Below, piece by piece: positions 55,223 through 57,796 of a stretch of 64,000 nucleotides of DNA. This DNA comes from Bacteroidales bacterium. GTDB taxonomy: Bacteria > Bacteroidota > Bacteroidia > Bacteroidales > WCHB1-69. Each line of letters opens with the position of its first letter. The stretch's first letter is position 1. The DNA lies in NCBI GenBank assembly GCA_045598025.1, contig JAZLLH010000010.1, positions 28,064-92,063 on the forward strand, written 5' to 3'. Under the pieces are notes generated by a model, which saw only the letters and a list, made by a program, of their open reading frames with translations, was not told the DNA's origin and made no database searches. The translations under genes and the position numbers were made by a program.

Positions 55223-56479
55223 ATGACAGATATTTTCACTCGTATCAAGGGTATCCCCGGACCTCTGGGTCAGTATCAGGAATTTGCAGACGGTTACTAC
55301 ATGTTTCCCCAATTGGTGGGCGAAATCGGACCGAATATGGAATTCAACGGCAAAAAAGTGCTGTGCTGGAGTTTGAACAACTACCTCGGTTTGGCCAACG
55401 ACCCCGAAGTCAGAAAAGCGGATGCGGAAGCCGCTGCCAAATACGGTATGGCTGCTCCCATGGGTGCCCGTATGATGTCCGGTGACACCAAATACCACCA
55501 CGAACTGGAACAGAAACTGGCCGATTTCGTCGGAAAACCCGCTGGATTTCTGGTCAATTTCGGATATCAGGCCATGATTTCCATTTTGGACTGCCTGTTG
55601 GACCGCCGCGATGTGGTTGTTTTCGATGTAGAATCACATGCCTGCATTTATGACGGCATACGCATGCATCTGGGAAAACACTTCTCCTTCCGTCACAACG
55701 ACATGGCCCATCTGCGCGAAGTACTGGGCAGAGCCACCAAATCTGCTGAAGAATCCGGTGGCGGCATTCTTGTGGTGACCGAAGGCGTATTCGGTATGTC
55801 CGGTGAACTGGGCAAACTGGATGAAATCGTAGCTTTGAAAAAAGAATTCAATTTCCGCCTGCTCATTGATGATGCTCACGGTTTCGGTACCATGGGTAAA
55901 AGAGGAACCGGCACGGCCGAACACTTCGGCGTGGAAGACGGCATTGATGTTCACTTCGCCACCTTTGCCAAAAGCATGGCCGGCATCGGCGCATTCGTAG
56001 CTTCCGAAAAAGCCATTGTTGATCATCTTCGCTTCAACATGCGCTCCCAGACTTATGCAAAATCCCTGCCCATGCCGATGGTGATGGGTGCTCTCAAACG
56101 TCTGGAACTCATACAGACCCGTCCGGATCTCCGCGAAAAACTGTGGACCATTACCCGCGCCTTGCAGAAAGGTTTGCGCGACAACGGGTTCAATATCGGA
56201 AAGACAGAAGCCAACGTTACTCCGGTATTCCTGAACGGCACCGTAGCCCAGGCTACCCAGATTGTAGTTGACATGCGTGAAAATTACGGTATTTTCTGTT
56301 CCATGGTTCTCTATCCTGTGGTTCCGAAAGGCACCATCGAACTGCGCCTGATTCCGACTGCCGCCCATACCTTGGAAGACGTAGAACGCACCATCAATGT
56401 GTTCAAGGAAGTACGCGAAAAATTGGACAAAGGCCTCTACAGCGAAACCGAAATCAACAACCAGCGCATCAATTTCTAA
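55223..56479 (+). CDS. PLP-dependent alpha-oxoamine synthase (serine palmitoyltransferase / cysteate-C-fatty-acyltransferase family)
   Basis: 418 aa of the AONS/SPT family: NNYLGLANDP, LLIDDAHGFG and the PLP lysine in ATFAKSMAG. Confidence 0.85.
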   Translation: MTDIFTRIKGIPGPLGQYQEFADGYYMFPQLVGEIGPNMEFNGKKVLCWSLNNYLGLANDPEVRKADAEAAAKYGMAAPMGARMMSGDTKYHHELEQKLADFVGKPAGFLVNFGYQAMISILDCLLDRRDVVVFDVESHACIYDGIRMHLGKHFSFRHNDMAHLREVLGRATKSAEESGGGILVVTEGVFGMSGELGKLDEIVALKKEFNFRLLIDDAHGFGTMGKRGTGTAEHFGVEDGIDVHFATFAKSMAGIGAFVASEKAIVDHLRFNMRSQTYAKSLPMPMVMGALKRLELIQTRPDLREKLWTITRALQKGLRDNGFNIGKTEANVTPVFLNGTVAQATQIVVDMRENYGIFCSMVLYPVVPKGTIELRLIPTAAHTLEDVERTINVFKEVREKLDKGLYSETEINNQRINF

Positions 56480-56482
56480 ATT

Positions 56483-57796
56483 ATGGCAGTACAGAACAAA
56501 TACCACCTCAAATGTGTGGATTGCGGACACACCATTCCGGATTTCCAGACATGGTTTGAGCAGGGTCAGTGTTGTCCGGAATGCCACAGCAAACATGCTG
56601 AAATAGAATATACGGCTGATTACGGCAAACTGCCGGAGCTTTTCAAAGGAAAACCCGATAGTTTCTGGCACTACTTTGATTTCCTGCCGCTCATGGACAA
56701 GACCCATATCGTCAGTTGCGGGGAAGGAGCGATTCCTTTGGAAAGATGGGGATTTTTGGAAGATTTCGCCAAAGCCCGTGGAATCGATTGCGAAATCTAT
56801 GTTTATCGCAACGATCTGAACGGAGGCACCGGAACCTTCAAGGATATCGCCGCTTCCATGGCTGCCAGCATTTTCAAGGAAATCGGTCTGAAGCAGTTCT
56901 GCATTGCCTCCACCGGAAATACTGCAACAGCTTACGGAAAGTACCTGGCCAAAGCCGGAGTGAGTGCAGCCATTTTCGTGCCGGAGAATGCGGAAGCCGC
57001 TTCCATGGCAGAAATTGCCTCCTACGGTGAAAAAGTATACAAAGTAAATAGCGACTACGCCGGTGCCAAAGCGGTGGCCGGTGCCTATGCACAAAAACAC
57101 CACATCCATACCTCTGCCGGCAACATCGATCCCATCCGTGTGGAATCCAAACGGACCATGGTATTCGAATGGCTGCGTCAACTGGGCAAAATGCCGGATA
57201 TCTACGTGCAGGCCGTCAGCGGCGGCACGGGACCACTGGCGTTGGACAAGGCCTACAGGGAACTTCAGCCCCATTTCCCGGATCTGACCTATCCCCGTCC
57301 CATCCTGATTCAGACGGACCATTGCGATCCTATGGTACAGGCTTGGGAAAAGGCAGTACGCCTCGGATTTCCGGAAGGTTTTGAAAAAGACTATCCTGTC
57401 ATTCAGAATCCTCAGACCATGGTTTCCATTCTGGGTACCGGCAATCCCGGAACCTATTCGAAAATTGCCAAGATCATGCACGCCCACAACGGCAGTTTCC
57501 TCCGCGTGGAGGAAAGCCGCCTGGCCACTGTAGCCCGTTTGGTCGCTTTTGAACGTAAAGTCCATATAGGTCCCGCCTCTGCCGTTTGCATAGCAGGATT
57601 GCTCAAAGCCCTGCAGCAGGGTGAAATCCGAAACGGACAATGCGTACTTGTCAATATGGGCGAAGGCATCAAACGCGCTCCTGAATTCTTGAAAATGCTT
57701 TCTCACAATATTTCCACGGTTTCGTCTGCCGAAGAATGTCATGTTCCCGACCTGCAGGAAACCAAAGAAAAATTGTGGGCAGAGGTACAAATGTAA
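56483..57796 (+). CDS. Threonine-synthase-fold PLP enzyme with an N-terminal Cys4 zinc ribbon; candidate cysteate synthase
   Basis: 437 aa. N-terminal CVDCGH...CCPECH, PLP-lysine motif GTGTFKDIAAS, then SGGTGPLAL. It starts 3 nt after the stop of the alpha-oxoamine synthase gene. Confidence 0.6.
   Translation: MAVQNKYHLKCVDCGHTIPDFQTWFEQGQCCPECHSKHAEIEYTADYGKLPELFKGKPDSFWHYFDFLPLMDKTHIVSCGEGAIPLERWGFLEDFAKARGIDCEIYVYRNDLNGGTGTFKDIAASMAASIFKEIGLKQFCIASTGNTATAYGKYLAKAGVSAAIFVPENAEAASMAEIASYGEKVYKVNSDYAGAKAVAGAYAQKHHIHTSAGNIDPIRVESKRTMVFEWLRQLGKMPDIYVQAVSGGTGPLALDKAYRELQPHFPDLTYPRPILIQTDHCDPMVQAWEKAVRLGFPEGFEKDYPVIQNPQTMVSILGTGNPGTYSKIAKIMHAHNGSFLRVEESRLATVARLVAFERKVHIGPASAVCIAGLLKALQQGEIRNGQCVLVNMGEGIKRAPEFLKMLSHNISTVSSAEECHVPDLQETKEKLWAEVQM

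Follow-up and report, generated by a model that had tools for sequence, protein, structure and literature searches.

A SulA-type acyltransferase gene paired with a threonine-synthase-like gene: a probable two-gene sulfonolipid operon in a Bacteroidales genome

The analyzed window, a 64-kb stretch of the genome of an uncultured Bacteroidales bacterium from gut or rumen (contig JAZLLH010000010.1, positions 28,064 to 92,063), contains a tight pair of genes: gene 1, an ortholog of the cysteate acyltransferases SulA, CapB, and CFAT, and gene 2, which encodes a pyridoxal phosphate (PLP) enzyme of threonine synthase (ThrC) fold. Together they probably form a two-gene operon that provides sulfonolipid (capnine/sulfobacin) biosynthesis with its first committed intermediate. 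The sequence of gene 1 is that of a typical SulA/CapB/CFAT enzyme. Gene 2 likely makes cysteate, to go by its fold and gene context, and would then be, we infer, a new variant of cysteate synthase, similar to CapA2 and the archaeal enzyme in reaction but outside both their family and ThrC. The two genes share the plus strand and one reading frame; as a preliminary description of this DNA had it, only 3 nt separate them and a strong terminator lies behind them (Table 1).

Gene 1 has the alpha-oxoamine synthase fold (PF00155, 125 bits) and, as initially described, carries its PLP lysine within TFAKSMAG; this residue, K250 (codon 55970-55972), aligned to K251 of SulA. Scores were far higher against Alistipes finegoldii SulA (PDB 7u7h, 635 bits) and a “cysteate-C-fatty acyltransferase” (28eh, 574 bits) than against the best serine palmitoyltransferase (Spt) chains (3a2b and 8guh, 259 bits), the best chain of BioF/Kbl type (8s1y, [quoted passage not shown] 219 bits), or the best chain named only as 2-amino-3-ketobutyrate CoA ligase (Kbl; 7v58, 199 bits). 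Identity to A. finegoldii SulA was 67.7% over 412 residues. SulA accepts cysteate, neither serine nor phosphoserine, and is distinguished in its active site by Lys281, a position that Ala occupies in Spt (Radka et al. 2022, PMC9304779). The equivalent in gene 1 is K280, within YAKSLP (codon 56060-56062), and the equivalents of both K251 and K281 were kept in all 80 gene 1 homologs that adjoin a gene 2 homolog. The scores and the retained Lys281 equivalent place gene 1 in the SulA/CapB/CFAT family, in line with the cysteate-C-fatty-acyltransferase type first proposed for it: gene 1 grouped with the characterized cysteate acyltransferases, and with neither Spt nor BioF.

Gene 2 matched PF00291 (PALP fold), and the threonine-synthase fold, GTGTFKD lysine, and N-terminal CxxC...CxxC ribbon that had been read from its sequence were all recovered: the PLP lysine is K120 (codon 56840-56842), the Cys4 ribbon consists of C11, C14, C31, and C34 (encoded by 56513-56584), and the ribbon cysteines and K120 were invariant in 86 homologs. 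Gene 2 nevertheless failed all NCBIfam cut-offs, including those for threonine synthase (PRK08197, 170.4 bits, cut-off 303; TIGR00260 thrC, 86.9 bits, cut-off 167.1) and cysteate synthase (TIGR03844, 117.8 bits, cut-off 324.9), and other members of its clade failed the ThrC cut-offs too. The AlphaFold model (pLDDT 93.8) best matched short threonine synthases (TM 0.83 to 0.88 by ThrC length); PDB 9k3c (“CapA2 from Alistipes finegoldii”) ranked 18th among the structural matches, and cystathionine-beta-synthase structures resembled it only distantly in fold (TMq 0.55, from rank 33 down). For the substrate site of ThrC we take the residue roles to be those of N154, S155, N188, and R160 in Thermus thermophilus ThrC (TtThrC). 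STGNT is retained in gene 2 and its clade, as is an Arg (R219 in gene 2) that corresponds to the phosphate-binding R160 of TtThrC; together with the PLP lysine, these features are compatible with a phospho-amino-acid substrate. Other ThrC motifs are altered: FKDRG is FKDIA in gene 2 (FKD[IVL]A across the clade), NSVNP (NSVNPxR) is GNIDPIR (GN-DP across the clade), and GNAGN is SGGTGP in gene 2 and its clade.

In a neighbor-joining tree with 100 bootstraps, the gene 2 clade was monophyletic (100% bootstrap; 96% for its Bacteroidales core), as was the CapA2/TIGR03844-like clade (100%); the two were joined in 1 of 100 bootstraps and are not sisters. True ThrCs that pass their cut-offs were placed elsewhere in the tree. 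By clade, by scores, and by altered motifs, gene 2 thus stands apart from canonical threonine synthases; neither, in a correction to the preliminary description, is it a cysteate synthase of the TIGR03844/CapA2 type, whether by its score (118 bits, cut-off 325) or by its place in the tree. Searched exhaustively, 1.84 billion representatives yielded a compact gene 2 family, after which scores fell sharply. Relatives were found in 317 of the 185,579 species genomes scanned, and the best 80 of the 317, fetched with their flanks (individual loci are cited by L numbers), were all of Bacteroidales type: rumen and gut metagenome-assembled genomes (MAGs), Proteiniphilum, Petrimonas, Fermentimonas, Paludibacter, and one Marinilabiliales MAG. 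No Bacteroides, Prevotella, or Alistipes appeared among the named matches, a distribution so narrow that the clade is unlikely to be the housekeeping ThrC of Bacteroidales. Homologs were annotated at source as “pyridoxal-phosphate dependent enzyme” or “threonine synthase,” and our literature search found no paper describing the clade.

That physical pairing favors a cysteate route, as had been argued from this one locus, gains weight from its recurrence: of the 76 species genomes that could be evaluated, 73 had a sulA homolog directly upstream of the gene 2 homolog, on the same strand (median gap about 60 nt), and the pair was usually accompanied by a short-chain dehydrogenase/reductase (SDR). 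This 263-aa SDR directly followed the gene 2 homolog in 55 of 70 loci, and a 369-aa two-domain protein of VOC/glyoxalase fold, absent from the window, came after the SDR in 51 of 51. A PDB search with the SDR gave nothing specific, and NCBIfam and PDB searches with the VOC protein gave no match. The nearest relatives of the window (L006-L015) had the two genes only, and no SDR adjoined the pair in those open to checking (L006-L012, L014, and L015); because the outer flanks differ among these relatives, the pair itself is what is conserved. As noted from the outset, no CapC-like reductase lies beside the pair in the window. The nearest SDR gene was considered for that role and rejected, as it belongs to a flexirubin cluster, where it scores as the reductase FlxB (385 bits, cut-off 340). 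Neither thrA, thrB, nor another thrC was found in the window or the fetched loci, the window held no thr, ser, or cys genes, and E. coli ThrC plus four ThrCs from the PDB, searched against the window and 90 loci, matched only the known ThrC-like gene.

Of 63 evaluable loci, 16 had a five-gene sHdr-like set ahead of the cluster: in 14 it immediately preceded sulA, and in L052 and L057, where sulA was lacking, it immediately preceded the ThrC-like gene. The order within the set was Fer4, CCG, short HdrA-like flavoprotein, small ferredoxin, and a fusion of Fer4 with two CCG domains. The flavoprotein matched HdrA chains and, over its full length (183 bits), PDB 6tjr, which we take to be Hyphomicrobium sHdrA, although our search of the literature left that identity unconfirmed. 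The arrangement parallels shdrC1-B1-A-H-B3, the order described for type II sHdr systems, and sHdr complexes oxidize sulfane sulfur to sulfite (PMC11094781). By analogy, the set may be a dedicated sulfite source that supplies the co-substrate. Neither LbpA nor sulfur-transferase genes were among the ORFs inspected immediately upstream in L026 and L071.

In the pathway we propose, the gene 2 product would eliminate phosphate from O-phospho-L-serine and add sulfite to the resulting aminoacrylate, yielding L-cysteate; the gene 1 product, by its close orthology to the assayed SulA, would join cysteate to acyl-acyl carrier protein with decarboxylation, yielding 3-ketocapnine. Reduction to capnine and N-acylation would have to be encoded elsewhere in the genome, while in most lineages of relatives a candidate reductase, the SDR, lies directly next in the same cluster. 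With the sHdr-like set, sulA, the ThrC-like gene, and the SDR gene in one cluster, the extended form reads as a pathway that would lead from sulfite supply through cysteate formation and condensation to ketoreduction. A fuller reading is possible, if somewhat short of an even chance: many anaerobic Bacteroidales would carry a synthase recruited independently of the TIGR03844/CapA2 type, within a self-contained cluster numbering as many as nine genes, in the order sHdr-like iron-sulfur flavoprotein complex, sulA, synthase, SDR, and VOC-fold protein, with sulfite made by the sHdr-like complex. If true, this would amount to a dedicated sulfite route for lipid synthesis (no sulfate-assimilation genes were seen in the cluster) and would extend sulfonolipid production to Bacteroidales of the rumen, termite gut, and digesters (Proteiniphilum, Petrimonas, Fermentimonas, and Paludibacter).

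Several observations weigh against these proposals. The function assigned to the gene 2 clade rests on context and fold, and in sequence gene 2 is nearer to true ThrCs (26 to 28% identity, 93 to 112 bits) than to CapA2 (9k3c; 23% identity, 62 bits). No reductase or N-acyltransferase adjoins the pair in the window, and the sHdr-like identification is based on domain order and the full-length 6tjr match. Distant members of the clade (38 to 45% identity) sit in unrelated contexts, namely glycan clusters and one phage-like DNA-modification cluster, so that the chemistry of the clade is probably not uniform. Finally, our literature search turned up no sulfonolipid report for Proteiniphilum, Petrimonas, Paludibacter, Fermentimonas, or Dysgonomonas. 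Some of this would fit a gene 2 product that performs beta- or gamma-replacement toward an amino acid other than cysteate, such as homocysteate (formed from O-phosphohomoserine and sulfite) or another beta-substituted alanine, with the SulA-like enzyme condensing that product into a long-chain base other than capnine: ThrC, to which the clade is nearer than to CapA2, uses O-phosphohomoserine, and the glycan and phage-like contexts of sister-clade members imply varied chemistry. Yet gene 1 is 68% identical to the cysteate-specific SulA, all 80 linked homologs kept the Lys281 equivalent, and sulfonolipid bases in the literature examined (Alistipes, Odoribacter, and others) were of capnine type only; we consider a different amino acid unlikely.

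An ordinary Zn-ribbon threonine synthase of the short type, beside sulA by chance, would account for the fold, the ThrCs that head the PDB matches, the JGI annotation of homologs as “threonine synthase,” and the lack of any other thrC in the 64-kb window. It sits badly with a gene that falls below the cut-off of every ThrC model and whose substrate-site motifs have changed, with a family of such narrow distribution, and with a sulA linkage (73 of 76 species) that extends to the SDR and the Hdr-like set and so is not chance; the chance-neighbor explanation is thus very improbable. A serine palmitoyltransferase role for gene 1, with the pair leading to dihydroceramide-type sphingolipids, has scarcely any likelihood: gene 1 belongs to the alpha-oxoamine synthase family and the Bacteroidota Spt model (NF047600) was its top-ranked NCBIfam model, but with 304 bits against a cut-off of 640, and gene 1 fell below every NCBIfam equivalog cut-off, including Spt, Kbl, and BioF. 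The scores against PDB chains (574 to 635 bits for SulA/CapB versus 259 for Spt) and the Lys in place of the Ala of Spt also speak for the cysteate acyltransferase.

The wider gene 2 clade, beyond the sulA-linked members, probably covers several phospho-ester replacement reactions. In L086, a sister-clade member lies in a polysaccharide cluster with a 2-hydroxyacid dehydrogenase, an ELFV amino-acid dehydrogenase, and a CapK-like ligase, neighbors that together could make and attach an amino acid derived from O-phosphoserine. Another, in a Desulfovibrio MAG (L087), is likewise in a polysaccharide cluster, with a CMP-sugar-type transferase, Asn-synthase-like genes, a sulfotransferase, and radical SAM genes. 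A third ThrC-like gene of the sister clade (L092), 39% identical to gene 2, adjoins a family A DNA polymerase gene within a phage-like block that also has QueC, GTP cyclohydrolase I, thymidylate-synthase-like, and dGTP diphosphohydrolase-like genes, which suggests a role in DNA base hypermodification.

Upstream of gene 1, a TAnnTTTG box resembling the Bacteroidetes-type -7 promoter (TACTTTTG) was present where the preliminary description had reported it; its value as a promoter is less secure. The window held 51 matches to this pattern against 40 ± 6 expected by chance, a slight enrichment, and a motif so near to chance frequency is weak evidence alone. The box was accordingly rejected as independent promoter evidence: it is compatible with a promoter but no proof of one. 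A second match in the upstream intergenic region (TAAATTTG) is likewise weak by itself. A 772-aa ORF antisense to both genes was dismissed as a codon-usage artefact, since two genes in the same frame with zero TTA/CTA codons and one TCA codon leave such a frame open.

A cluster for a lipid pigment of the flexirubin/aryl-polyene type lies on the minus strand, divergent from the pair; it was not seen adjoining the pair in the loci of relatives. Between it and sulA is a 249-aa ORF that matched nothing in Pfam or NCBIfam and lacks a counterpart in any related locus, so it may not be a real gene. On the 3' side of the pair follow a C10 (streptopain-like) peptidase with a type IX secretion system (T9SS) sorting domain, CvpA, and LpxC, an order also found in the three nearest relatives (L006-L008). 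A cluster with ribosomal protein, SecY, RpoA, and EF-G genes identifies the window as core chromosome, not a mobile element.

Table 1. Coordinates of the features discussed (window positions, unless a locus is named)
Feature	Position	Strand	Remarks
Gene 1	55223-56479	+	ORF, 418 aa; SulA/CapB/CFAT ortholog
Spacer between genes 1 and 2	56480-56482	+	3 nt, “att”
Gene 2	56483-57796	+	ORF, 437 aa; ThrC-fold PLP enzyme
TAnnTTTG box TACTTTTG	55178-55185	+	38 nt 5' of gene 1 ATG; pattern search
Second TAnnTTTG match TAAATTTG	55116-55123	+	pattern search
Intrinsic terminator	57821-57858	+	12-bp stem and 4-nt loop at 57821-57848, then T-run; terminator scan and sequence
Antisense ORF	55634-57952	-	772 aa; rejected
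249-aa ORF	54333-55082	+	
C10 peptidase, CvpA, LpxC	57966-61590	+	
Ribosomal protein, SecY, RpoA, EF-G cluster	7264-23804	-	
Flexirubin cluster, whole	36818-54236	-	
Aromatic amino-acid ammonia-lyase	52707-54236	-	flexirubin cluster
FlxB reductase	51974-52702	-	flexirubin cluster
Four ketosynthase-like genes	50073-51305, 45770-46996, 43521-44738, 42440-43510	-	flexirubin cluster
LpxL-like acyltransferase	48891-49817	-	flexirubin cluster
O-methyltransferase	47794-48891	-	flexirubin cluster
LolA-like gene	41450-42070	-	flexirubin cluster
GT2 gene	40328-41101	-	flexirubin cluster
MMPL and acyltransferase fusion	36818-40321	-	flexirubin cluster
sHdr-like set	L026 3601-8597		also in L019, L020, L032, L040, L043, L047, L052, L056, L057, L061, L071, L072, L075, L082
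VOC/glyoxalase-fold protein	L002 12224-13333		example
Sister-clade member, polysaccharide cluster	L086 4141-9341		
Sister-clade member, polysaccharide cluster	L087 8001-17245		Desulfovibrio MAG
Sister-clade member, phage-like block	L092 8001-9311		

Surveys of sulfonolipid producers hinge on recognizing the cysteate synthase. Published surveys have used validated synthases as queries at a similarity of at least 50% and would probably miss the gene 2 clade, given its 23% identity to CapA2, the one validated type compared here. If the clade does consist of cysteate synthases, it would serve as a genetic marker of the capacity to make sulfonolipids in at least some 300 species of Bacteroidales, many of them from the rumen, insect gut, and anaerobic digesters; it would also represent another threonine-synthase scaffold re-used for sulfonate chemistry, and the linked sHdr-like genes would hint at where anaerobes obtain the sulfite. 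Cultured carriers of the cluster exist, e.g., Proteiniphilum acetatigenes DSM 18083 and Petrimonas sulfuriphila DSM 16547.

A cysteate synthase derived from ThrC has precedent in the TIGR03844 enzymes of the coenzyme M pathway (Methanosarcinales) and in A. finegoldii CapA2 (9K3C/9K3O). Like gene 2, these are PLP enzymes of the ThrC superfamily, about 435 aa long with an extra N-terminal domain, and the reaction proposed for gene 2, O-phosphoserine plus sulfite to cysteate, is theirs. CapA2 and gene 2 have in common a PLP-phosphate loop of SG-x-G type, in contrast to the GNAGN of ThrC, whereas the ribbon is degenerate in 9k3c and an intact CxxC...CxxC in gene 2. Among ThrCs of the short class (6CGQ, 2ZSJ, 1UIM, and 2D1F) and the Zn-ribbon class PRK08197, the short enzymes are the best structural match for gene 2, but the solved short ThrCs are without an N-terminal ribbon domain, and gene 2 is linked to lipid genes, not to thrA/thrB. 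CapA of Capnocytophaga is cystathionine-beta-synthase-like, not ThrC-like; if CapA is such a separate type, gene 2 would mark the third independent recruitment of an enzyme to cysteate synthesis. The 9k3c sequence passes TIGR03844 (480 bits, cut-off 324.9), which makes the Alistipes ThrC-like cysteate synthase of solved structure one of archaeal type, in agreement with the review-level statement that Alistipes and Odoribacter have a homolog of the archaeal enzyme instead of CapA (PMC10191378).

Gene 1 has the same PLP lysine and Lys281 equivalent as SulA (alfi_1224, PDB 7U7H) and the CapB/CFAT enzymes of Capnocytophaga, Flavobacterium, and Chryseobacterium (28eh). An Alistipes locus had been expected to carry the same pair, but in two Alistipes/Rikenellaceae-type genomes sulA is solitary, PALP genes being absent within 10 kb of it, so that the characterized system lacks the operon with a ThrC-like gene found in the window. 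The pathway logic is that of CapA-CapB-CapC in Capnocytophaga ochracea and Ornithobacterium rhinotracheale and of Cys-CFAT-KCR in Chryseobacterium gleum: cysteate synthase, cysteate acyltransferase, and SDR ketoreductase. The reductase genes of C. gleum and A. finegoldii lie dispersed, away from cfat/Cys, whereas the relatives of the window carry all three functions, as candidates, in a single extended cluster that follows this logic.

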